A stretch of 64,000 nt of DNA from Candidatus Gorgyraea atricola (GTDB lineage Bacteria; Omnitrophota; Gorgyraeia; Gorgyraeales; Gorgyraeaceae), in contig JAVCCW010000029.1 of NCBI GenBank assembly GCA_030765235.1, forward strand, positions 311,666-375,665, in the 5' to 3' direction. Positions within the stretch are counted from its first letter, which is position 1. Each line of letters begins with the position of its first letter. Below the pieces are notes generated by a model, which saw nothing but the letters and a program-made list of their open reading frames with translations, was not told the DNA's origin and did no database searches. Shown here one piece after another: positions 268 to 62,197 of the stretch. The translations under genes were made by a program, and so were the position numbers.

Positions 268-405
268 ATGTTTGTTGTGAGTTGTGAGGGTTGGTTGTGT
301 GTTGTGTGTCGGGTTGTGGGGATGGGTAGTGAGTTCTAACCCCACCCACATAACTCATAACTCGACTCACAACCCACAACTCACCCCAACCCTCACAACA
401 TTAAT
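268..405. repeat. long GT-rich/AC-rich inverted repeat (imperfect hairpin, ~60-nt arms) between gap and glgA
   Basis: gttgtgagttgtgagggttggttgtgtgttgtgtgtcgggttgtgggg...ccccacccacataactcataactcgactcacaacccacaactcaccccaaccctcacaac; arms built of GTTGTGA-like 7-mers. Confidence 0.6.
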
Positions 406-4841: not shown

Positions 4842-4880
4842 AAAGTAGACAAAACAGACAATGACTGTTTTGTCTACTTT
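4842..4880. terminator. hairpin aaagtagacaaaacag-N8-ctgttttgtctacttt after the GH57 gene; repeated element (second copy 48853-48891)
   Basis: perfect 16-bp stem, T-rich 3' side; identical stem found again at 48.85 kb. Confidence 0.6.
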
Positions 4881-10715: not shown

Positions 10716-10761
10716 CTCCTCCTCTGTAGGCCAGGTTTAAACCTGGCCTACAGAGGAGGAG
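10716..10761. repeat. perfect palindrome CTCCTCCTCTGTAGGCCAGGTTTAAACCTGGCCTACAGAGGAGGAG (REP-like; related copy at 18955-19012)
   Basis: seen directly; centred on GTTTAAAC. Confidence 0.6.
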
Positions 10762-14162: not shown

Positions 14163-14263
14163 AGGCAAAGGCCTTTGCGACAAATATGTAGGTCACACAA
14201 TAGCAGCTTATAGCAGCTGTAGGGCACACTTCAGTGTGCCAAAGATATTTAAAATTTCATATT

Positions 14264-15562
14264 ATGTCATATACAATTACTGAAAAAATATTACTGAAGC
14301 ATACTGACAAGAAATCTATCGTGCCTGGGGATTTTATCTACGCAGAGATTGATATGGCGCTTGGGAATGATATTACCGCGCCTATTGCCATAAAGGAATT
14401 CGAGTCTGCCGGAGCCAGGAAAGTTTTTAACAGAAAAAAGATCGCGCTTGTACCTGATCACTTTACGCCTGCCAAGGATAAGAAGAGCGCGGACCAGGCA
14501 AAGATCCTTAAGGAATTTGCCAGAAAGCATAATATAGAGAACTATTTTGAAATAGGCCGCATGGGTGTGGAGCACGTGCTTTTGCCAGAGCAGGGACTTG
14601 TCGGGCCGGGCCAACTCATTATAGGTGCTGATTCTCATACCTGTACGTATGGAGCACTTGGCGCATTCTCAACAGGTGTTGGCTCTACGGATCTTGCAGC
14701 AGGTTTCATAACAGGACGCGTATGGTTAAAGGTGCCTGAGAGCATGAAATTTATTTATTATGGCAAGCCTGGAAAATGGACAGGCGGCAAGGATTTTATT
14801 TTACACACTATTGGAGATATTGGCGTAGATGGCGCATTGTACAGGGCCATGGAATTTACAGGCGAGGCCATACGAAGGCTACCAATGGATGATAGATTTG
14901 CGATGTGTAACATGGCGATCGAGGCTGGTGGGAAGTCTGGGATTATTGAGGCGGATGATGCGACTATTAAATATTGCCTAGCGTCAGGGACAAGGGACCC
15001 CATACGAAAATCAAAGATTTCGTACGGGGCAGGCATGGGACAAGGGACAAGGAGTGATAAAGACGCCAGGTATTGTGAGACGCGGGAATATGATGTTAGT
15101 AAGATCGAGCCGCAGGTTTCTGCGCCGCATTTGCCTAGCAATGCCGGGGCTGTGAGCAAGTTTAAGAAAATAAATATAGATCAGTCAGTGATCGGCTCAT
15201 GCACAAATGGCAGGATAAGTGATCTGAGGATAGCTGCAAAGATCTTGAAAGGCAAAAAGGTTGATTCAGGAGTCAGGCTGATAATCATACCGGCTACACA
15301 AAAGATATATGTACAGGCAATGGAAGAAGGCCTTGCAGATATCTTTATTGATTCAGGCGGTGTTTTTTCAACGCCCAGCTGTGGGCCATGTCTTGGCGGA
15401 CACTTGGGTATTTTAGCAAAAGGCGAACGCGCAATCGCCACCACGAACAGAAACTTCCGCGGCAGAATGGGGCATCCTGAGAGCGAAGTCTATCTCTCGA
15501 ACCCAGCTGTAGCTGCGGCCAGCGCAATAAAAGGAAGGATAGCTCATCCTGATGAAATTTAA
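14264..15562 (+). CDS. leuC: 3-isopropylmalate dehydratase large subunit (aconitase family; homoaconitase-type not excluded)
   Basis: aconitase-family catalytic domain; SCTNGR, CGPCLG motifs; followed by leuD, leuB. Confidence 0.8.
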   Translation: MSYTITEKILLKHTDKKSIVPGDFIYAEIDMALGNDITAPIAIKEFESAGARKVFNRKKIALVPDHFTPAKDKKSADQAKILKEFARKHNIENYFEIGRMGVEHVLLPEQGLVGPGQLIIGADSHTCTYGALGAFSTGVGSTDLAAGFITGRVWLKVPESMKFIYYGKPGKWTGGKDFILHTIGDIGVDGALYRAMEFTGEAIRRLPMDDRFAMCNMAIEAGGKSGIIEADDATIKYCLASGTRDPIRKSKISYGAGMGQGTRSDKDARYCETREYDVSKIEPQVSAPHLPSNAGAVSKFKKINIDQSVIGSCTNGRISDLRIAAKILKGKKVDSGVRLIIIPATQKIYVQAMEEGLADIFIDSGGVFSTPSCGPCLGGHLGILAKGERAIATTNRNFRGRMGHPESEVYLSNPAVAAASAIKGRIAHPDEI

Positions 15563-18954: not shown

Positions 18955-19012
18955 CCCTCTCCTCTGTAGGCCGGGTTTAAACCCGGCCTACAGAGGTGGT
19001 GTAGGGAGAGGG
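18955..19012. repeat. palindrome CCCTCTCCTCTGTAGGCCGGGTTTAAACCCGGCCTACAGAGG...GGGAGAGGG (REP-like, family of 10716-10761)
   Basis: shares CTCTGTAGGCCnGGTTTAAACCnGGCCTACAGAG core with the opp intergenic copy. Confidence 0.6.
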
Positions 19013-20317: not shown

Positions 20318-21192
20318 AAACCAAAGTTTACTACGAGGTGGATCCGCATAATAGGCTTGTTATTAAGAGCCCGTCGAAGAAGTCTAATGTAAAGAAGTTT
20401 CGCAGGGTTGTTGAAGGCCGGTTTAGGGCAGATGGGAAAAATCGGCTGTATTACGAGGTTTTTAAATCTTCCAAGAGTGACACTCCTCAAAAGATAAAAT
20501 TTTCTGGCAAATATTCTCTGGATAAAAAGCATAATCTTATTTATACGTTAGATAAGTGGAGTAATCAGTGTGAGGGCAATCGACTTAGGTTAAAGACGAA
20601 ACTTCTGGATGCTGGAAAGAATGAGATCATGTTTTTAGTTCAGTCTCGAGATCCTTCTAAGGGTAAGAGGCGTATTTATACAATGAAGCTGCATGGCAAA
20701 TGGCAGGCAGATAAGAATAATAGGCTTTGTTTTGGGATAGAAAAGACCAGGAATAAATTAACCTTATCAAATGCATGGCAGATAAACAAGAACAATGAGA
20801 TAGTCTATAAATATGGCAGACAGCCAGAGGCTATTGTGTTAAAAGGTAAATGGCAGATAAGGAAAAAACATAGATTGGGATATGTCTTGGAGAAAAGACT
20901 CGATTCTGGATTTAACTTCAGGACATCGCTTGGCCAGATAGTGCCAAAGAAAAAAAAGACATACCTAAAGTTCGATGTTATTATAGATATAACAAAGAGG
21001 AAGAGGATAAAAAGAAAAATTACTTTTTGCGGTACGTGCAAGCTTACTAAAGATGGAAGGATTTTATTAGAAATGTCTCCTGGTAAAGAAAAGAAACTTA
21101 GCCTGAAATTAACAAAGCGCATGGCCTATATTGAGTCTTTTATTAAAGGCAGGGAAAGATATTTAGGCGGAGGTATTGCTTTTAGATGGTAG
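20314..21192 (+). CDS. hypothetical lysine-rich protein with internal repeats
   Basis: recurring GKWQxxKxxRL / NRLYYEV-like segments; no known domain recognised. Confidence 0.45.
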   Translation: MKTKVYYEVDPHNRLVIKSPSKKSNVKKFRRVVEGRFRADGKNRLYYEVFKSSKSDTPQKIKFSGKYSLDKKHNLIYTLDKWSNQCEGNRLRLKTKLLDAGKNEIMFLVQSRDPSKGKRRIYTMKLHGKWQADKNNRLCFGIEKTRNKLTLSNAWQINKNNEIVYKYGRQPEAIVLKGKWQIRKKHRLGYVLEKRLDSGFNFRTSLGQIVPKKKKTYLKFDVIIDITKRKRIKRKITFCGTCKLTKDGRILLEMSPGKEKKLSLKLTKRMAYIESFIKGRERYLGGGIAFRW

Positions 21193-23750
21193 AGTATAGT
21201 TTAATCAAAAATTTTGATAACTCAGTAGAGCAGTTTAAGGATAAGGTTGCTATTTTATCTGGTTCAACGTCACTGACTTATGCAGAGCTTGGCGAGAAGA
21301 TAAAAAATACCGCATGTTACATATCTTCATTAGGCATTGAAAAAGGTGACAGGGTTGCGATCATTCTTGATAATGGGCCAGAGTTTGCGAGCGTATTTTT
21401 TGCATTGGCTTATATAGGCGCGGTCGCGGTTCCTCTTGATCCAAGGATGACAGAGAAGGATGTAGCAAACATCATGTCTGACTCTGGCGCAAAGATCCTT
21501 CTTACAATTGATAAAATAAAAGAACTAGACCCACCGCAAGTTTTTGAGAAAGCCATAGTAGAACCAGACGACCTTATAGTGCTGCTTTACACCTCTGGCA
21601 CCACAGACCTTCCAAAAGGTGTAATGCTCACGCATAAGAATCTGTGCTCGAATTTTAATTCTTTGAGGAAGATGAAGATCTTTACGCCAAAGGATACGAT
21701 ATTATCAATTCTCCCGCTTTACCATTCCTATTCACTCATGACTACGCTTATCGCGCCTCTTTTTTCAGGTTCAAAGATCGTGTATGTCTCTAGTGACTGG
21801 CCAGAGAAATTAGCTGACTATATAAAGGAAGCTGGAACAACCGTATTTATAGGTGTACCGCAGATTTATCACATGATGCATTCGCGCATGATTAAAAAGC
21901 TTAGCAGTATAGAAGGCCTTAAGGGGCTATTTGTAAAATCAGTAATAGCTCTTGGCCTTACAAAGGTACTTTTGCCCAAGGTCAAAAACGCCTTTGGAAA
22001 AAGGCTTCGCTTTTTTATAAGCGGCGGCGCAAAGCTGGATGCTACAGTGGCAAGGGATTTTTTCAAGCTTGGCTTTAAGATATTGGAAGGCTATGGCCTG
22101 ACTGAAACTTCTCCTGTTGCAAGTATAAATCCAGTGAAAAGGCCAAAGATAGGGTCGATTGGCACGCCTGTTCCTGATGTAAGGATGAGGATCTTGAATC
22201 CAGATTCCAGCGGCGTAGGCGAGATCGTGATCCAGGGCCCAAATGTCATGAAAGGCTACTATAAGAATGAGGAAAAGACAAAAGAGGTGCTTAAGAATAA
22301 CTGGTTTTATTCAGGCGACCTGGGATACAAGAATAGAGATGGATATTTTTATATTACAGGCAGGTCTAAAGAGGTGATAGTACTTAGCTCAGGCAAGAAT
22401 ATCTATCCTGAGGAGATTGAAAAGCATTATTCGAATACGTCCTACATAAAAGAAATGTGTGTTATAGGCGTATTAAAGGGAAAAGGCAATAGTAAGCTTG
22501 AATATCTGCATGCGATTGTTGTACCAGACCTTGAGTTTTTTAAAGAGCGCGGCGAAATGAATGTGAATCAAGTGTTAAAGGCCACATTTGATAATCTCTC
22601 TAAAGACATACCTGGCTATAGGCATATCATGGGATTTACTGTGACAAAAGAGGCTCTGTCGCGTACTGTGCTGGGCAAGCTCAAGCGATATGAGATCGAG
22701 AAAAAATTCCTTCCTGTTATTTTAGAAGAGACAGAGGAAGAAAAAGCTGTGAGTCCAGAAGATCAGGCTTTGCTTCAATCTGATACAGCGAAAAGGCTAA
22801 TAGCGTGCATAAAGGATGCGCTTGAGATAAAAGGGGATGCGCATCTTAATGACAGTATTGAGCTTGATCTGGGAGTGGATTCACTTACCAGGGTAGAGCT
22901 TGTTCTGGCTGTTGAGAAGTGTTTTAACATAGAGATATCGGATGAGATGATCGCGGCGGGGATATTTACGGTTAAGGATATTCTTACGAAAGTTGAAGAA
23001 CTCTTGGCAAGTGACAAGCGACAAGTGACAAGCGACAAGGGCGTGGAAAGAGCTATTCACTGGGCTGGGATTTTGAAGCAGGAATTGGCAAAGGATTTTC
23101 AGGACAAGATATCGTTGGAGTTGAGCTGGATAGATTATGTGTTTACTTTTATAATTAAAGGGTGCGTTGGTTTATTTTTCAGGATTTTTTATAGGCTCAA
23201 GGTAGAAGGCGCGGAAAAGATACCTAAGAAAGGGCCTTATGTTTTATGTGTGAATCATACTAGTTTCCTGGACGGGTTTATTGTACTATCTGGTGTGCCG
23301 CTTAGGACAGAACTTGAGTTATTCTTTATTGGATTCAGGAGATATTTTATAGTGCCTATCATAAGGAATCTTGTAAGGCGCTCAAGGATCATTCCTGTAG
23401 ATGCCACGCAGATCATAGAGGCAATGCAAGGCTCTGCGTATATCCTGAAGCACAATAAGGCCCTCTGTATATTCCCTGAGGGAGAGCGTTCTATTGACGG
23501 CGAGGTAAAGGAATTCAAGAAAGGTATTGGCATAATTGCAAAAGAACTAAATGCGCCACTTGTACCGGTTTATATCAATGGCGCTTTCAAAGCCTGGCCC
23601 AGGACACAGAAATTTCCAAAACTACACCCTATTAGCATAAAATTTGGCAGTCCTGTTGCACCTGATGTGTTAGCCAAGAAAGGCGACGCAAAAGACGAAC
23701 ACGAAGCAATTGCTGCAGGTATAAGAGGAGAGGTAATTAACCTTGGGTAA
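21186..23750 (+). CDS. tri-domain fusion: acyl-CoA/acyl-ACP synthetase (AMP-binding) + acyl carrier (PP-binding) domain + 1-acyl-sn-glycerol-3-phosphate acyltransferase (Aas-like)
   Basis: LLYTSGTTDLPKGV AMP motif; DSLTRVEL phosphopantetheine site; NHTSFLD (HX4D) and FPEGERS acyltransferase motifs; 854 aa. Confidence 0.75.
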   Translation: MVEYSLIKNFDNSVEQFKDKVAILSGSTSLTYAELGEKIKNTACYISSLGIEKGDRVAIILDNGPEFASVFFALAYIGAVAVPLDPRMTEKDVANIMSDSGAKILLTIDKIKELDPPQVFEKAIVEPDDLIVLLYTSGTTDLPKGVMLTHKNLCSNFNSLRKMKIFTPKDTILSILPLYHSYSLMTTLIAPLFSGSKIVYVSSDWPEKLADYIKEAGTTVFIGVPQIYHMMHSRMIKKLSSIEGLKGLFVKSVIALGLTKVLLPKVKNAFGKRLRFFISGGAKLDATVARDFFKLGFKILEGYGLTETSPVASINPVKRPKIGSIGTPVPDVRMRILNPDSSGVGEIVIQGPNVMKGYYKNEEKTKEVLKNNWFYSGDLGYKNRDGYFYITGRSKEVIVLSSGKNIYPEEIEKHYSNTSYIKEMCVIGVLKGKGNSKLEYLHAIVVPDLEFFKERGEMNVNQVLKATFDNLSKDIPGYRHIMGFTVTKEALSRTVLGKLKRYEIEKKFLPVILEETEEEKAVSPEDQALLQSDTAKRLIACIKDALEIKGDAHLNDSIELDLGVDSLTRVELVLAVEKCFNIEISDEMIAAGIFTVKDILTKVEELLASDKRQVTSDKGVERAIHWAGILKQELAKDFQDKISLELSWIDYVFTFIIKGCVGLFFRIFYRLKVEGAEKIPKKGPYVLCVNHTSFLDGFIVLSGVPLRTELELFFIGFRRYFIVPIIRNLVRRSRIIPVDATQIIEAMQGSAYILKHNKALCIFPEGERSIDGEVKEFKKGIGIIAKELNAPLVPVYINGAFKAWPRTQKFPKLHPISIKFGSPVAPDVLAKKGDAKDEHEAIAAGIRGEVINLG
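23010..23043 (+). repeat. tandem heptamer repeat (GTGACAA/GCGACAA)x4 + GGG in frame inside the Aas-like gene (encodes SDKRQVTSDKG)
   Basis: agtgacaagcgacaagtgacaagcgacaagggc. Confidence 0.65.
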
Positions 23751-23792
23751 CTTCGTAAGTTGTCCATTTGGACAACTTACGAAGTTACCCAA
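23743..23792. terminator. near-perfect 23-bp hairpin TTGGGTAACTTCGTAAGTTGTCC-loop-GGACAACTTACGAAGTTACCCAA overlapping the stop of the Aas-like gene
   Basis: seen directly; no T-run, so terminator versus structural element is unresolved. Confidence 0.5.
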
Positions 23793-23811
23793 GGTAGAAC
23801 AGGGGGATTGT

Positions 23812-24191: not shown

Positions 24192-24247
24192 CAATTCGTA
24201 CAGTGAGTTACGAAAATCAGAGATTTCCGTAACTCAGGTGCTCATTG

Positions 24248-24301
24248 AAATGCACCTGGGATGTAAAGCAACCCATCCGCAAAGTCTATAACTTTGGATA
24301 A
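24248..24301 (+). pseudogene. duplicated, diverged fragment of the 3' end of the cupin gene (KCTWDVKQPIRKVYNFG*)
   Basis: ~80% nt identity to 24031-24084 including the stop codon; lies just beyond the MITE-like element. Confidence 0.45.
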
Positions 24302-24346
24302 CTTTACATTTTAGGTCTTGCTTTAAATGTAAAGTTATGTTATAAT
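24296..24346 (+). promoter_or_regulatory. inverted repeat AACTTTACATTT-N13-AAATGTAAAGTT containing the 25-mer AGGTCTTGCTTTAAATGTAAAGTTA, followed by an extended -10 TGTTATAAT
   Basis: 25-mer repeated exactly at 44679-44703 (uvrA 5' UTR); half-site shared with the inverted repeat at 27220-27262. Confidence 0.4.
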
Positions 24347-33380: not shown

Positions 33381-34555
33381 AGAATAAAAAGGTGGTTTTA
33401 GCGTATTCAGGCGGGTTAGATACTTCGGTGGCTGTGAGATGGCTTACAGATAAGGGCTATGATGTTGTTGCCTACATGGCTGATGTGGGCCAGGGCGGGA
33501 ATTTTCAGAAGCTCAAGAAAAGGGCCTTGTCTACAGGTGCCTCAAAGGTCGTGATCGAGGATCTCAAAGACGAATTTGCAAAAGACTTTGCCTTTCAGTC
33601 GTTAAAGGCAGGCGCAGTCTATGAATCAAAGTATCTATTGGCAACCGCGCTTTCAAGGCCGATCATCGCAAAGGGCCTGGTGCAGACCGCGAAAAAGGAA
33701 AAGGCTAGTTTTATCGCGCATGGCTGTACAGGAAAAGGCAATGACCAGGTAAGGTTCGAGGTCACTGCAATGGCGCTTGCGCCTGAGCTCGGCATACTGG
33801 CGCCGCTCAGGGAATGGAATATGTATTCCAGAGACGAAGAAATAGAGTATGCAAAGGAAAAAGGCATAGACATAGATGTTACGAAAAAAAGCCCTTATAG
33901 TTTAGATCAGAATATTTGGGGAATAAGCATTGAGTGTGGCGTGCTAGAAGATCCATGGAATGAGCCGCCAGAAGACGCGTATAAAATGAGTATTGATCCA
34001 AAAATGGCGCCAAATAAATCAACATATGTAGAGATCGAGTTTAAAAATGGCATACCAGTAAAGATCAATGGAAAAAAATACGCGGCAGTGGATCTGGTAA
34101 TGAAGCTCAATAAGATCGGCGGCAAAAATGGCATAGGCAGGACTGATCTTGTTGAGAATAGACTCGTTGGCATTAAATCAAGGGAGATATATGAGGCGCC
34201 AGGGGCGTGGATCTTACATAAGGCGCATAAGGATTTAGAGGCGCTTGTGCTCGACAGGGAGCTGTTGCATTTTAAGGAAGTTATTTCCTTAAAATACGCG
34301 GAGCTTATATATTACGGCTTATGGTTTACACCTTTAAAAAAGGCGCTGGACGGATTTATAAACCAGACGCAGAAGAATGTAACAGGCAGTGTGAAGATGA
34401 AGCTGTTAAAGGGTCTTGCGAGTGTAGTAGGGAGAAAATCAGCGCACTCACTTTATAAAAAAGAAATGGCAACATATGACCCAGGCGATAAGTTCGACAG
34501 GACCATTGCGGAAGGATTTATTAAAGTGTGGGGAATGCCGTATAAAAAGGTGTAA
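33377..34555 (+). CDS. argG: argininosuccinate synthase
   Basis: VVLAYSGGLDTSV PP-loop. Confidence 0.9.
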   Translation: MKNKKVVLAYSGGLDTSVAVRWLTDKGYDVVAYMADVGQGGNFQKLKKRALSTGASKVVIEDLKDEFAKDFAFQSLKAGAVYESKYLLATALSRPIIAKGLVQTAKKEKASFIAHGCTGKGNDQVRFEVTAMALAPELGILAPLREWNMYSRDEEIEYAKEKGIDIDVTKKSPYSLDQNIWGISIECGVLEDPWNEPPEDAYKMSIDPKMAPNKSTYVEIEFKNGIPVKINGKKYAAVDLVMKLNKIGGKNGIGRTDLVENRLVGIKSREIYEAPGAWILHKAHKDLEALVLDRELLHFKEVISLKYAELIYYGLWFTPLKKALDGFINQTQKNVTGSVKMKLLKGLASVVGRKSAHSLYKKEMATYDPGDKFDRTIAEGFIKVWGMPYKKV

Positions 34556-34617
34556 GGTGTCAAGTGTCAGGTGTCAGGGAAGGTGCCTTGACACCTGACA
34601 CCTTTAACCTGACACTA
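34548..34617. repeat. heptamer-repeat hairpin (GGTGTCA-type units x4 + GGG, then reverse-complement arm) between argG and argH
   Basis: aaggtgtaaggtgtcaagtgtcaggtgtcagggaaggtgccttgacacctgacacctttaacctgacact. Confidence 0.6.
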
Positions 34618-37176: not shown

Positions 37177-37964
37177 ATAAGCTAAAATTTACGAAAATGG
37201 TTGGGGCTGGGAATGATTTTGTCTTGATTGATATTAGGGACAAGAGACAAGGAACAAGGGACAAGGGCTGGTCTAGGGTTGCGCAGGATTTATGTCAGAG
37301 GAAGACTGGGGTTGGTGCGGATGGGTTGCTTGTACTGGAGAAGTCTAAAAGAGCAGATTTTAGGATGCGCATATTCAATGCTGATGGCAGTGAAGCAGAG
37401 ATGTGTGGCAATGGCCTAAGGTGCGCTGCACTATACGTAGGCAAAAAAGGCAAGGCAAAGGTTGAGACAAAAGCAGGTCTTTATGAAGCGACCATTACAG
37501 GTAAAAATAGAGTTAAGATAAAGATGGAAGAACCCAAGGATTTGAAATCAGGTTTTCCGATCAGAGTAAATGATAGGCGCATAAGAGTGAGTTATGTTGA
37601 TACTGGTGTGCCGCATACAGTGGTTTTTGTGCAGGGCATTGAAAAGATAGACGTTGATTCTATTGGCAGAAGTATAAGATATCATAAAGAATTCAAGCCG
37701 CGTGGCACAAATGTTGATTTTGTCGAAATTATAGACGATAAAAATATAAAGATGCGGACGTATGAGCGCGGAGTAGAAGGGGAGACGCTTGCCTGTGGCA
37801 CGGGAGCAGTGGCGGCGGCGATTATAAGTAGTGTCAGGTGTCAGGTGTCAGGTGTCAATGTGCACACAAAAGGTGGGATTTTAAAGGTTTATATTGGTCA
37901 TAAAGGAGTATATTTAGAAGGAGAAGCGCGAAAGGTTTACCAGGGAGAGGTGAATTATGTTTGA
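37173..37964 (+). CDS. dapF: diaminopimelate epimerase
   Basis: FTKMVGAGNDFVLID, two catalytic Cys (MCGNGLRC, LACGTGAVAAA); carries two in-frame heptamer-repeat inserts. Confidence 0.85.
   Translation: MNKLKFTKMVGAGNDFVLIDIRDKRQGTRDKGWSRVAQDLCQRKTGVGADGLLVLEKSKRADFRMRIFNADGSEAEMCGNGLRCAALYVGKKGKAKVETKAGLYEATITGKNRVKIKMEEPKDLKSGFPIRVNDRRIRVSYVDTGVPHTVVFVQGIEKIDVDSIGRSIRYHKEFKPRGTNVDFVEIIDDKNIKMRTYERGVEGETLACGTGAVAAAIISSVRCQVSGVNVHTKGGILKVYIGHKGVYLEGEARKVYQGEVNYV
37247..37278 (+). repeat. in-frame heptamer repeat (GGGACAA/GAGACAA/GGAACAA)x4 + GGGC inside dapF (encodes RDKRQGTRDKG)
   Basis: gggacaagagacaaggaacaagggacaagggc. Confidence 0.65.
37830..37858 (+). repeat. in-frame heptamer repeat (GGTGTCA)x4 inside dapF (encodes VRCQVSGVN)
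   Basis: agtgtcaggtgtcaggtgtcaggtgtcaa. Confidence 0.65.
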
Positions 37965-39557: not shown

Positions 39558-40709
39558 ATGGGATTTGAATTAAGTGAGAGAGTAAAAAGGCTTCCGCCTT
39601 ATTTGTTTGTGGAGATCGATAAGGCGAAACGAAAAGCCAGGGCTGAAGGAAGAGACATAATAGATCTTGGGATCGGGGATCCTGATGAGGCCTCGCCAAA
39701 AGAGGTGGTGGATGTTTTCTGTAAAGCAGCAGGAGATCCAAAAAATCAACGCTATCCTTTGGATGAAGGGATACCAGCCCTAAGGAATAAAATAGCAGAG
39801 TGGTACAAGACCAGATTCAGCGTTACGCTGGATCCTGATAAAGAGGTGCTTGTTCTTATAGGCTCAAAAGAGGGAATAGCACATATGCCTTTGGCATTTA
39901 TTAATCCAGGAGATGTCTCGCTTGTGCCTGATCCTTGCTACCCTCCGTATAAAAGCGGGACTATTCTTGCCGGAGGAAAAGTGCATACAATGCCTCTTTT
40001 AGAGGAGAATAATTTTTTACCGGATTTAAAGCCTGTAAAAAAAGCAAAACTGCTCTATATAAATTATCCGAATAATCCTACGAGTGCTGTGTGTGACAAA
40101 AGATTTTTTGAAGACGCAGTGCTTTTCGCAAGAAAAAACAATGTTATTGTTGCGCATGACGCGGCATATTCTGAAATAGCATTTGATGGATATAGACCTG
40201 AGAGCTTCTTAAAAGTAGCTGGCGCAAAAGAACTGGGCGTTGAATTTCATTCTCTGTCCAAGACCTGTAATATGACTGGATGGCGCATTGGCTTTGTGTG
40301 CGGTAATGAGAAAATTATATCAGCCATAGCCAAAGTAAAATCCAACATCGACTCGGGCGCGTTCAATGCTATTCAAGTCGCTGGTATAACTGCTCTGGAT
40401 ATAGCAGAGAAACATACGCAGAGGATGAATAAGATCTATCAAGAGCGGCGTGACGTGCTTGTAGACGGCCTGAATAAAATTGGCTGGGCAACAAGAAAGC
40501 CAAAAGCAACTTTTTATGTCTGGACTCGGATCCCAAAGCAGTATAAATCATCTATTGAATTTGCCGAAATGGTACTTGAAAAAGCAAATATAGTTATTAC
40601 TCCAGGCATAGGCATGGGAGAAAGCGGCGAAGGATACGTGCGTATGGCGCTCACTGTTTCAAAGGAGCGGATGTTGGAGGCGGTGGAGAGGCTGAGGAAG
40701 ATACTTTAA
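39558..40709 (+). CDS. dapL: class-I PLP aminotransferase, probably LL-diaminopimelate aminotransferase
   Basis: RLPPYLFVEIDKAK N-terminus typical of DapL-family enzymes; follows lysA-dapF-dapA-dapB with no dapD/dapE in the window. Confidence 0.55.
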   Translation: MGFELSERVKRLPPYLFVEIDKAKRKARAEGRDIIDLGIGDPDEASPKEVVDVFCKAAGDPKNQRYPLDEGIPALRNKIAEWYKTRFSVTLDPDKEVLVLIGSKEGIAHMPLAFINPGDVSLVPDPCYPPYKSGTILAGGKVHTMPLLEENNFLPDLKPVKKAKLLYINYPNNPTSAVCDKRFFEDAVLFARKNNVIVAHDAAYSEIAFDGYRPESFLKVAGAKELGVEFHSLSKTCNMTGWRIGFVCGNEKIISAIAKVKSNIDSGAFNAIQVAGITALDIAEKHTQRMNKIYQERRDVLVDGLNKIGWATRKPKATFYVWTRIPKQYKSSIEFAEMVLEKANIVITPGIGMGESGEGYVRMALTVSKERMLEAVERLRKIL

Positions 40710-40710
40710 A

Positions 40711-40782
40711 GTGACAAGGGACAAGAGACAAGAGACAAGGGAGTTAGATACTCCTTGTCCCATGTCCCTTGTTGCTTGTCCC
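40711..40782. repeat. heptamer-repeat hairpin element (GTGACAA GGGACAA GAGACAA GAGACAA GGGA - loop - reverse-complement arm), upstream of folK
   Basis: gtgacaagggacaagagacaagagacaagggagttagatactccttgtcccatgtcccttgttgcttgtcc. Confidence 0.65.
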
Positions 40783-40789
40783 TGATATT

Positions 40790-41233
40790 ATGCATTGCTA
40801 CATAGGCATTGGCTCAAATCTAGGCAATAGACGCAAGAACATTGATGCTGCGATAGAGAGATTGCAGCAGGCAAAAGAGATCGAGGTCAAAAAAATCTCG
40901 AGTGTATACGAGACAGAGCCAGTGGGCGGGCCAAAACAGTCTGATTATCTGAACGCTGCCATAGAAATCAACACAACATTTGGACCAAGAGAGCTTCTTG
41001 CAGCTTTACGCGAGATAGAAGATCATCTTGACAGAGAAAGATCAGTCAAGGATGGACCGCGTACCATTGATCTAGACATATTGACTTACGGTGATGAAAA
41101 AATAGATGAACCAGATCTAAAGATCCCACATCCAAGAATGAATGAACGAGAGTTTGTGCAGAAGCCTTTGAGGGATATCCAGGGAGGGACAAGAAGTGAC
41201 AAGGGACAAGAGACAAGGGACAAGGGGGTTTAG
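40790..41233 (+). CDS. folK: 2-amino-4-hydroxy-6-hydroxymethyldihydropteridine pyrophosphokinase (HPPK)
   Basis: YIGIGSNLGNRRKNI and TIDLDIL motifs; C-terminal 16 residues (GGTRSDKGQETRDKGV) are encoded by the downstream repeat element. Confidence 0.8.
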   Translation: MHCYIGIGSNLGNRRKNIDAAIERLQQAKEIEVKKISSVYETEPVGGPKQSDYLNAAIEINTTFGPRELLAALREIEDHLDRERSVKDGPRTIDLDILTYGDEKIDEPDLKIPHPRMNEREFVQKPLRDIQGGTRSDKGQETRDKGV

Positions 41234-41261
41234 ATGCTCCTTGTCCCATGTCCCTTGTTGC
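41183..41261. repeat. second copy of the GACAA-type heptamer hairpin, same orientation, downstream of and overlapping the 3' end of folK
   Basis: gggacaagaagtgacaagggacaagagacaagggacaagggggtttagatgctccttgtcccatgtcccttgttgc; loop TTAGAT as in the first copy. Confidence 0.65.
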
Positions 41262-41267
41262 TAAAGT

Positions 41268-42098
41268 ATGAAAATATACAGAAGCATCAAGCCATTGATT
41301 AATCTGAAAGGGAAAAAGGGAACCATTGGCCTTGTTCCTACCATGGGTTTTCTGCACGGGGGCCATTTGAGCCTGATAAGAAGGGCGAGAAAAGATACAG
41401 ATCGTGTTGTCGTGAGTATTTTTGTAAATCCTACTCAATTCGGTCCAAAAGAGGACCTTAAGAAGTACCCAAGAGACTTGAATCGTGATCTAAGACTTTG
41501 CAGAAAAGAAGGCGTTGACATTGTATTTATCCCTACAGCCAGGACCATTTATGCAAATGGATTTTCAACATATGTAAATGTCGGAAATATTGCAGGAACT
41601 CTTTGTGGCGCCTCAAGACCAGGCCATTTTAAGGGCGTTGCAACAGTTGTGGCTAAACTTTTTAATATTGTACAGCCAGACATAGCATACTTTGGCCAAA
41701 AAGACGCGCAGCAGGCCATTGTGATAAAGAAAATGGTAGAAGATCTAAATATACCGATAAAGATAAAGGTCATGCCTATAGTGCGAGAGAAAGACGGCCT
41801 TGCAATGAGCTCGCGAAATCTCTATTTATCTCCCCAGGAACGCCGAGAAGCCCTCTCATTATATAAATCCTTAAAATTAGCAAAGACTCTTTACAGAAAA
41901 GGCGAAAGGGATTCGAGAAACATAATCAAAATGATACAGAAGGAAATCCTTAAAGAGTCTAATGCGAAGATAGACTATGTCTCTATAGTAGATACAAAGA
42001 ATCTTAAACCATTGGATAGAATTTCTAATAAGGCCTTAGTTGCTGTTGCAGCTAAAATTGGCAAGACAAGACTGATCGACAATGCCATTTTAAATTAA
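41268..42098 (+). CDS. panC: pantoate--beta-alanine ligase
   Basis: GLVPTMGFLHGGHLSLI HIGH-type motif. Confidence 0.9.
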   Translation: MKIYRSIKPLINLKGKKGTIGLVPTMGFLHGGHLSLIRRARKDTDRVVVSIFVNPTQFGPKEDLKKYPRDLNRDLRLCRKEGVDIVFIPTARTIYANGFSTYVNVGNIAGTLCGASRPGHFKGVATVVAKLFNIVQPDIAYFGQKDAQQAIVIKKMVEDLNIPIKIKVMPIVREKDGLAMSSRNLYLSPQERREALSLYKSLKLAKTLYRKGERDSRNIIKMIQKEILKESNAKIDYVSIVDTKNLKPLDRISNKALVAVAAKIGKTRLIDNAILN

Positions 42099-48795: not shown

Positions 48796-48973
48796 TGCAC
48801 CACTCAGACCAAGGGGGCATGGGGCTTCTTTTACGCGAGCGGGCACGGTGCTAAAGTAGACAAAACAGTCACTGACTGTTTTGTCTACTTTAGTGAGCGA
48901 GCGTAAAAAAAGAGCAAAATTTTCACGCTGGGAAAATTTTGCGTCCCCAGGACCCCTTGGTCTGGGTGGTGCA
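48796..48973. ncRNA. ~180-nt nested palindromic element / candidate structured RNA (21-bp outer stem enclosing three hairpins, one identical to the 4842-4880 hairpin)
   Basis: outer TGCACCACTCAGACCAAGGGG / CCCCTTGGTCTGGGTGGTGCA; inner cttttacgc/gcgtaaaag, aaagtagacaaaacag/ctgttttgtctacttt, gcaaaattttc/gaaaattttgc. Confidence 0.4.
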
Positions 48974-52589: not shown

Positions 52590-52716
52590 TAAATCCCAAA
52601 TCCCAATAATACCAATACTACCAAATAAATCCCAATCTCCAAATCCCAAACATGGTTTTGGATTTGGGATTTTGGATTTATTTGGGATTTGGTAGTATTG
52701 GGATTTGGGATTTTTT
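52590..52716. repeat. ~125-nt imperfect palindrome built of AATCCCA heptamer repeats (arms ~60 nt) ending in a T-run, between exbD and tonB
   Basis: aatcccaaatcccaataataccaatactaccaaataaatcccaatctccaaatcccaaa-catgg-ttttggatttgggattttggatttatttgggatttggtagtattgggatttgggatttttt. Confidence 0.65.
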
Positions 52717-61774: not shown

Positions 61775-62197
61775 ATGAGAAGTAAAGGTTTTACGCTGGT
61801 AGAAGTATTGATAGTCGTTATCATCATAGGTATCCTCGCTGCCATAGGCATACCGCAGTTTTCAGCTGCTATGGAAAAAGCAAAAGGCGGTGAGGCAAGG
61901 GCAGGCCTGGGGCATATACAGACCGCAGAAAAGATTTATTTTGCAGAAAACGACGCATATATTGGTGAACTTGGGGATACTAGTCTAGATTCATTACCGA
62001 TCAGTGCCTTAGATTTGACTTTGACTCAGAAATACTGGACCTTTACAATTGACGTACCAGGCGAGAATGAAGATGGCGGTGCAACTGGCTACACGGCAAC
62101 TGCGACAAGGAAAGGTGGATCCACAGCCTATCAAAATGACACTATTATGATGGACAACACCGGAGAGATAGGCGGAACTTGGGATTTTATTAATTAG
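61775..62197 (+). CDS. type IV pilin (prepilin-type N-terminal cleavage/methylation domain)
   Basis: MRSKGFTLVEVLIVVIIIGILAAIGIPQF class III signal. Confidence 0.8.
   Translation: MRSKGFTLVEVLIVVIIIGILAAIGIPQFSAAMEKAKGGEARAGLGHIQTAEKIYFAENDAYIGELGDTSLDSLPISALDLTLTQKYWTFTIDVPGENEDGGATGYTATATRKGGSTAYQNDTIMMDNTGEIGGTWDFIN

Follow-up and report, generated by a model that had tools for sequence, protein, structure and literature searches.

The folK gene of Candidatus Gorgyraea atricola lies between two nearly identical hairpin-forming sequences, and the second of them supplies the end of the FolK protein. How did the same sequence come to stand on both sides of one small gene, did the gene travel with it, and what has it done to FolK? 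We addressed these questions in a 64,000-nt stretch of contig JAVCCW010000029.1 (positions 1-64000, hereafter the window), in which PanC (MDP8230888.1) and LL-diaminopimelate aminotransferase (MDP8230886.1), both encoded beside folK, are exact matches to proteins of this member of the Omnitrophota (GC content, 42.3%). In our opinion, the folK-flanking sequences are likely to be copies of a dispersed palindromic family of G. atricola that resembles repetitive extragenic palindromic (REP) elements and MITEs (miniature inverted-repeat transposable elements), an ordinary kind of repeat. The family is unusual in four respects: its arms are built of heptamers, its loop is fixed, it is inserted exactly at overlapping stop and start codons, and it provides a new protein end.

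The initial annotation had described two elements of about 75 bp around folK, each with a left arm of four to five tandem heptamers, a TTAGAT loop and a complementary right arm. Its positions were right within 1-3 nt (Table 1), and the same architecture was read in the sequence here. The left arm of the upstream copy consists of AGTGACAA GGGACAA GAGACAA GAGACAA GGGAG and the right arm of CTCCTTGTCC CATGTCC CTTGTTG CTTGTCC CTG, with TTAGAT in the loop. The upstream copy has 4+4 units (left+right arm) and the downstream copy 5+3; the loop of the latter, GGGGGTTTAGATGCTCC, contains the folK stop codon. Tandem Repeats Finder and our own scan gave 4.4 and 4.7 repeat units in the left arms and a period of 7/14 nt in the right arms. 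The unit GNNACAA proposed earlier described a heptamer array correctly, but GNGACAA (GACAAGR in the other register) is the better form because only one position varies. Tandem pairs of GACAAGR units occurred 15 times in the window, with 0.15 expected.

The two elements lie in the same orientation, 485 nt apart, with one gene between them. Alignment supported the earlier view that they are copies of each other, with 94.2% identity over 69 nt (E = 2.5e-21), or 95% over 37 nt and 92% over 38 nt in two ungapped blocks. An exact 26-mer common to both, CTCCTTGTCCCATGTCCCTTGTTGCT, spans the irregular units and was found nowhere else in the window with up to 3 mismatches allowed. The nhmmer profile of the family matched the upstream copy at E = 6e-24 and the downstream copy at E = 7e-23. 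Judged from sequence, the two are homologous copies of one repeat, the same imperfections included. The arms within each copy are 81-90% complementary, and the suspicion that the element is structured was confirmed by RNA folding: the predicted upstream hairpin has 29 pairs and a minimum free energy of -37.8 kcal/mol (z = -6.1 against shuffled sequences), and the downstream one 25 pairs and -41.4 kcal/mol (z = -5.4). Both copies fold on either strand (-37.8 to -41.7 kcal/mol, z from -5.4 to -6.7), and no shuffle equalled them. The 3' end of the upstream element stops 6 nt short of the folK ATG at 40790, and no Shine-Dalgarno sequence was seen before folK or panC.

Comparison with relatives (given here as L with a number) revealed the state of these junctions without the elements. 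The gene order dapF-dapA-dapB-aminotransferase-folK-panC-panD-nadA-aspDH was conserved among the relatives examined. L229/L226 share 89.35% nucleotide identity with the window over 7,249 aligned columns, and their junctions are TAATG (aminotransferase/folK) and ATGA (folK/panC) with zero spacer. Relative to this TAATG, the upstream element is an insertion of ~80-81 nt, and the downstream element is missing in L229, L226 and L222, whose panC ATG shares nucleotides with the TGA of folK. Apart from one swapped array in dapF, the only large differences between the window and L229/L226 over this stretch were indels: the window alone has the two ~80-nt elements, and L229 alone a 42-nt palindrome at dapB/aminotransferase. 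The junctions compared were either filled or wholly empty (~80 nt vs none), with no intermediates seen, and filled and empty versions of three junctions gave no target-site duplication longer than 1 nt, at most the shared A of TAATG/TGATG. The alignments show that each copy is an ~80-nt insertion into a zero-spacer junction, whose stop and start codons were probably translationally coupled before the insertion.

In L224 the same element occupies the upstream junction and is 96.7% identical to ours, with flanking genes 83-87% identical, while its downstream junction holds unrelated sequence. Since L224 has the upstream copy and not the downstream one, the two copies were inserted in separate events. 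In L222 and L225, whose folK is 91-92% identical to that of L224, hairpins of 10-nt units stand at the upstream junction; between these two relatives, GTTAC/GTAAC units have changed to GTTTC/GAAAC in both arms together. The neighbours of folK were unchanged in relatives carrying zero, one or two elements of various families. Because folK keeps the same neighbours with or without elements, it was not their cargo: the gene has not moved, and the elements colonised a conserved arg-dap-folK-pan-nad string.

The consequence for FolK can be followed at both ends of the gene. The TTG at 40769, taken as the start of the open reading frame (ORF) by the program, falls inside the upstream element; homologues start elsewhere, and their start motif M(R/H/A)CYIGIGSNLG supports the ATG at 40790. 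At the other end, the HPPK Pfam match stops at residue 138 of the 154-aa ORF that begins at the TTG, directly before the tail GGTRSDKGQETRDKGV. That the downstream copy supplies this C-terminus had been proposed in the initial annotation, and the tail had been read correctly. The best 120 FolK homologues were nearly all from Omnitrophota. Most were 131-136 aa long and ended 2-5 residues past a PL(R/K)(D/E)(I/L) motif, so the earlier alternative that relatives share the tail without a repeat did not hold. FolK of the window is 16 residues longer than most of them, and the longer tails in a minority were unrelated to its tail. When positions 41180-41259 (80 nt, = 2 mod 3) were deleted in silico, the protein ended ...PLRDIAKV*, with a TGA overlapping the panC ATG and the same length as PLRELLNV* in L229. 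Because the deletion restores an end of the ancestral type, the tail is best seen as a by-product of the downstream insertion. Read in this way, the sequences show that the insertion fell about three codons ahead of the old folK stop and displaced it. FolK now reads through the left arm to the TAG in the loop, its short end replaced by a hydrophilic tail of 16 residues.

An assembly artefact is unlikely, since the DNA of both elements is identical in an independent ENA assembly (L001) and the tail-bearing 147-aa FolK is also in the NCBI annotation (MDP8230887.1). FolK tails in the three further relatives examined (L233, L234 and L235) were likewise encoded by a palindrome or a repeat hairpin. 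In L233, folK is flanked on both sides (331-400 and 800-885) by a hexamer (RTTRAG)-armed hairpin family, and the downstream hairpin is read through to give the tail ...NKLRLRLRLRLSKSP. The tail of L234 is encoded by the same type of palindrome, CCCCGTACC...GGTACGGGG, that is formed within queA of L236 (~544-575) by an 18-nt insertion relative to L239.

Is the element confined to folK? A metagenome scan with a 19-mer of the right arm, followed by the nhmmer profile, picked up elements with the same loop (TTAGAT/ATCTAA) and end units at unrelated junctions, namely recG/rsmD (L154), yaaT-like/metG (L221) and both sides of queA (L147, the same as L236; QueA = MDP8230478.1). As L236 belongs to the same ENA assembly as L001, and QueA MDP8230478.1 to the same metagenome-assembled genome, at least four full copies are present in G. 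atricola. The end units AGTGACAAG ... CTTGTTGCTTGTCCCT are common to copies at five or more unrelated junctions, and across the seven family members the ends are AGTGACAAG / AGGGACAAG and CTTGTCCCT. In all intergenic cases the element begins 1-2 nt past the upstream stop codon and ends 5-10 nt before the next ATG (8-10 nt in L154 and L221), and both orientations relative to transcription occur across the loci. An empty site was found here as well: in L239, 86% identical in queA, the spoIID/queA junction is TGATG with overlapping stop and start. Its queA/tgt junction carries a one-armed array of four GTGTAAN units and no hairpin element. A scan of genome contigs with GACAAGNGACAAGNGACAAG, too unspecific to single out the element, gave GTGACAA/GGGACAA arrays widespread over many phyla; among the matches listed, which did not include the G. 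atricola genome, a convergent partner array accompanied 12 of 120 GACAAGN-array loci.

Table 1. Positions in the window of folK, its flanking elements and neighbours, and of other repeat arrays and hairpins.
Feature	Position	Strand	Remarks
folK (HPPK), 147 aa	40790..41233	+	PF01288, E = 1.5e-41; MDP8230887.1
FolK C-terminal tail GGTRSDKGQETRDKGV + TAG	41183..41233	+	element-encoded; stop 41231-41233 in loop
Upstream copy, heptamer-armed hairpin	40710..40783	+	fills aminotransferase/folK junction; 74-nt imperfect palindrome
Downstream copy, same element	41180/41183..41262	+	predicted hairpin 41195-41262
Aminotransferase stop TAA	40707..40709	+	gene 39558-40709; 1 nt before upstream hairpin base
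panC	41268..42098	+	start 5 nt past downstream element
GGTGTCA-armed hairpin	34548..34615	+	argG/argH junction; -41.9 kcal/mol, z = -5.3
AAATCCC/GGGATTT-armed long hairpin	52591..52713	+	exbD/tonB-like junction; -67.6 kcal/mol, z = -9.2
GTTGTGN-type-armed long hairpin	269..400	+	upstream of glycogen synthase gene (glgA); -67.3 kcal/mol, z = -5.0
One-armed GACAAGR array in dapF	37236..37267	+	N-terminal loop, RDKRQGTRDKG; in frame
One-armed array in dapF, four GGTGTCA units	37831..37857	+	C-terminal loop; in frame
One-armed array, five GACAAGY units	23005..23039	+	linker between PP-binding and acyltransferase domains, ORF 21186-23750

The window also holds heptamer arrays away from folK. Nine clear arrays had period 7, against 0-1 for each other period from 5 to 12, and three one-armed arrays consisted of the GACAAGR unit. 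About half of 12 window arrays lie inside ORFs and are read in frame. Of these one-armed arrays, dapF has two, and others stand in leuC, asd and the acyl-ACP synthetase/acyltransferase ORF; every one falls in a loop or linker. The dapF arrays differ between relatives. At the codons of its C-terminal loop, where the window has GGTGTCA units, L229 (1172-1201) and L226 (75-104) have four GGGACAA units between nearly identical flanks; in L231, a more distant relative, this loop is shorter and not repetitive. At the N-terminal loop, L231 carries a non-repetitive stretch of the same length as the GACAAGR array. The argG/argH junction, which holds a GGTGTCA-armed hairpin in the window, measures only 8 nt in L231.

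The preferred reading, a dispersed REP/MITE-like family, suggests the following course of events. The elements would have spread by copy-and-paste acting on hairpin DNA without target duplication; candidate agents are an HUH/RAYT-like single-strand transposase encoded elsewhere, or an exchange between copies by gene conversion or template switching. Once in place, they would have been reshaped by slippage of the heptamers and by correction of one arm against the other, to which the concerted changes between L222 and L225 lend support. Such elements would be essentially selfish or near-neutral passengers, and gene boundaries and protein loops may be the only places where they persist, since their heptamers have no stop codon in the reading direction (GACAAGR, GGTGTCA and AGCAACA have none in any frame of the array strand as written 5' to 3'). 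Once transcribed, they would form intercistronic hairpins of -38 to -41 kcal/mol. By analogy with REP elements, these hairpins probably modulate mRNA decay, ribosome stalling close to termination and stop-start coupling, and they may protect the upstream mRNA. Since the stem has the stop codon at its 5' base and the start codon a few nucleotides beyond its 3' base, the two would stay adjacent in the folded RNA.

Several observations weigh against this reading. One-armed arrays of the same heptamer inside genes are not explained by simple transposition, which is also insufficient for the different arrays at the same dapF codons and at the same queA/tgt junction. Only four full copies could be tied to G. 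atricola. The flanks of seven copies showed neither a target duplication longer than 1 nt nor a conserved insertion target. A Pfam scan of the + strand ORFs of at least 110 aa, which cover nearly the whole + strand gene string of the window, gave no transposase, RAYT or recombinase domain. Covariation support for a conserved RNA structure was not significant among the seven family members (92.6% of cells paired, one compensatory cell, 85 of 500 shuffles as good). Finally, the element in L224 is more conserved than its flanks, which could point to selection rather than neutrality.

A bolder proposal, which we rate as rather unlikely, is this: Omnitrophota of the Gorgyraea lineage would possess an undescribed class of hairpins armed with tandem units of 6, 7 or 10 nt, together with a dedicated way of writing them into overlapping junctions and protein loops without target-site duplication. 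Turnover in such a class would be so fast that close relatives differ at the same codons or junctions, and it would be tolerated because the folded hairpin keeps stop and start side by side and so preserves termination-reinitiation coupling.

A second alternative is growth in situ, in which local heptamer slippage and fold-back (template-switch) duplication would build the hairpins without any movement between loci. Period 7 dominates the tandem arrays of the window with many different units, the unit numbers differ between the copies (4+4 vs 5+3), and the 10-nt-unit hairpins of L222 and L225 show concerted, arm-compensated changes between flanks that are 91% identical. An excess of heptamer simple sequence repeats (SSRs), put down to polymerase slippage, is also documented (PMC4679880 citing Mrazek 2007; PMC4692102). 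However, at least five unrelated junctions share the TTAGAT loop, the end units and the irregular units, which independent slippage would not reproduce, and the junctions are empty or filled with ~80 nt. We regard growth in situ as quite improbable.

Thirdly, the hairpins could be a selected, operon-specific regulatory RNA that insulates folK and queA, both low-demand enzymes, by uncoupling translation, stalling terminating ribosomes or forming a barrier to RNases and exonucleases; that its sequence is conserved for such a function seems very unlikely to us. At every intact junction examined, the hairpin lies 1-2 nt from the upstream stop and 5-10 nt from the next ATG, folK and panC are without a Shine-Dalgarno sequence, and between the window and L224 the genes beside the element have diverged more than the element itself. 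In three cases a single small gene is bracketed: folK here, queA, and folK of L233 (by another family). Liang, Rudd and Deutscher reportedly found in 2015 that an E. coli REP within ~15 nt of the stop lowers upstream expression through ribosome stalling and trans-translation. However, close relatives have no element at all at the same junctions and other lineages hold unrelated elements there; the family occurs in both orientations relative to transcription, with no significant covariation and no terminator-like tail.

It is highly improbable that the arrays act at the DNA level as a protein-binding or structural site such as a G-quadruplex, a nucleoid or gyrase site or a DNA-uptake signal. 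Four GGGACAA units would fit the G3N4 quadruplex pattern studied for GGGAATC and GGGGAYT (PMC4692102), about four units are typical of an array, and the product of 61775-62197 is a weakly ComP_DUS-like minor pilin. Only some units are GGG in the folK copies, however, and the GGTGTCA, AGCAACA and AGCTGAN families of the window have no G-tracts; the presence of several unrelated heptamer units argues against one specific binding protein or uptake signal. Scarcely credible is the idea of a composite mobilisable unit or gene cassette with folK as cargo, raised in the initial annotation, in which the direct repeats would delimit a block that moves or is exchanged: the copies do share orientation, are ~94% identical and bracket exactly one gene within 485 nt, but the order dapA-dapB-aminotransferase-folK-panC-panD-nadA is kept in relatives without the element, folK lies between identical neighbours in all relatives examined, the two copies were inserted separately and the Pfam scan of the window showed no recombinase or transposase nearby.

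Three other candidates were tried and rejected. An intrinsic terminator was discarded, as no + strand terminator or promoter-like site was found at either element and the tails (GATATTATG, AAAGTATG) contain no U-tract. A known structured RNA such as the tetrahydrofolate riboswitch was discarded as well, the whole window giving no Rfam match at the gathering threshold; in E-value mode, 40600-41400 gave only sub-threshold matches to hairpins of miRNA precursors. CsrA-type GGA motifs and loop pairing resembling Shine-Dalgarno/anti-Shine-Dalgarno contacts were dropped since other heptamer families of the genome lack the motifs.

How does the dispersed family compare with known repeats? Our searches of the literature yielded no account of repeats in Omnitrophota. 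The nearest described precedent is the paired GGGAATC heptamer repeats of Xanthomonas, which form 70-75 convergent pairs per genome, mostly of four units each, with stem-loop potential (PMC4692102). According to Rehm et al. (2015), these arrays and the GGGGAYT arrays of Nostoc are mostly intergenic and transcribed, and in Xanthomonas their positions are conserved among related genomes while lengths vary (PMC4692102). The G. atricola element is likewise made of tandem 7-nt units, about four per array, in convergent arms. It differs in being a discrete unit of ~75-80 nt whose loop and irregular units are shared between loci, and in lying exactly in stop/start junctions, where it is read through by a gene. 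Furthermore, the G. atricola genome holds several heptamer families, including in-frame intragenic arrays.

Cyanobacterial short tandemly repeated repetitive (STRR) sequences, also heptamer repeats, were reportedly described by Mazel et al. in 1990. In Beggiatoaceae, the TAACTGA repeats form mostly one-armed direct arrays, with one inverted set in the genome (PMC4679880). For long heptanucleotide SSRs, two papers that summarise Mrazek et al. (2007) describe a genome-wide period-7 excess with few recurrent heptamers, spread over many loci and often beside start codons (PMC4679880, PMC4692102). A period-7 excess and dispersed recurrent heptamers are common to the cyanobacterial and Beggiatoaceae repeats and to the window. 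In contrast to the G. atricola element, however, theirs are overwhelmingly one-armed and are not described as fixed-length hairpins or as insertions into overlapping junctions.

RAYT transposases mobilise REP elements and REPINs, which are short intercistronic palindromes present in multiple copies (PMC3116915, PMC3733652, PMC8266576). Similarly, the G. atricola element is intercistronic, occurs in both orientations, makes no target duplication and places a hairpin right after the stop codon. However, its seven members have no GTAG or CGTC end tag, its arms are direct heptamer arrays that lack a REP palindrome of their own, and the 64 kb searched showed no RAYT gene. GTAG, which tags the main REP superfamily, does occur in other palindrome families of the window. 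Correia elements carry an IHF site, terminal inverted repeats of 26 bp and a TA duplication; none of these was seen in the G. atricola element, and no IS was seen in the window. Correia/NEMIS elements of Neisseria and the enterobacterial ERIC/IRU are palindromes of ~70-150 nt in transcribed operon spacers, sometimes fused to coding ends and variably present between close relatives, and in these respects the G. atricola element resembles them. The initial annotation had likened the pair to REPIN- or Correia-type elements. The likeness to REP elements and MITEs in general stood, given the filled and empty sites and the copies at unrelated junctions, but membership of a specific family was not established.

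The locus offers a clean, datable case of small palindromes remodelling a compact genome and creating new protein C-termini, with differences in the FolK tail between Omnitrophota lineages traced to such insertions. It extends the heptamer-repeat phenomenon of cyanobacteria, Xanthomonas and Beggiatoaceae to an uncultured phylum. Any mechanism must explain both the return of entire hairpin units, with their loops conserved, at unrelated loci and the replacement of one heptamer array by another at identical positions between genomes ~89% identical. Should the hairpins influence mRNA decay or translational coupling, they would offer an inexpensive means of retuning enzyme ratios in long biosynthetic operons.

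About 62 plausible genes could be placed in the window, all on the + strand and many with overlapping or abutting stops and starts, which makes an unusually long co-oriented string. Their Pfam matches are those of housekeeping functions (glycogen metabolism, glycolysis, an Opp transporter, leu/asd, arg, lys/dap, folK, pan, nad and uvrA), besides Tol/Ton-like and type IV pilus genes; three scanned ORFs had no Pfam match, and a scan of the window for tRNA and tmRNA genes gave none. The type IV minor pilin at 61775-62197 matched ComP_DUS, the DNA uptake sequence receptor, weakly (31.7 bits vs a cutoff of 27.3), and its gene sits within a cluster resembling pilMOQ and type II secretion genes. In ENA ERZ27315536, the contigs L001 and L236 are 4.1 kb and 1.6 kb long; L236 has a hairpin element near each end and L001 begins ~35 nt upstream of one, so these repeats probably fragment short-read assemblies of G. 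atricola.

Palindromes of other kinds were also observed, and the window has several unrelated families of at least two copies, some shared with relatives at different junctions. The leuC-like ORF (14234-15562) has an in-frame insertion at 14985-15060, in which short GGGACAA arrays surround the small hairpin CCCCATACGAAAATCAAAGATTTCGTACGGGG. The loop that holds the insertion has 8 residues fewer in the solved homologue 4kp1_A, and a related hairpin loop occurs at 24199-24240. A perfect palindrome with 27-nt arms (ACCTTGGGTAACTTCGTAAGTTGTCCA/TG/reverse complement, 23740-23795) straddles the junction of ORF 21186-23750 with a cupin ORF and is also present at the folK/panC junction of L225 (3396-3452), representing another dispersed family. 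The palindrome AACTTTACATTTTAGGTCTTGCTTTAAATGTAAAGTT, found at 24299-24341 in the 270-nt spacer before ORF 24355, recurs at dapB/aminotransferase of L229 (2888-2935) and L225 (1674-1720), and at 95% identity in L010 (3552-3594), a contig labelled Planctomycetia. Two further junction palindromes, both containing GTAG, have two copies each in the window: CCTCTGTAGGCC(A/G)GGTTTAAACC... at 10716-10761 and 18961-18996, and AAAGTAGACAAAACAG(A/T)CA-T-reverse complement at 4842-4880 and 48851-48893. Distant relatives have multi-copy operon-junction palindromes of their own, for example TTGTTCAAGGCTTAGCCTTGAACA and GTCATTGCGAG...GCAATCTCATGAGATTGC...CTCGCAATGAC, with pairs at L231 2557-2637/10403-10445, L231 1587-1665/L232 12744-12824 and L222 1425-1507/L231 11289-11423. 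The occupancy of operon junctions by palindromes is lineage-specific.

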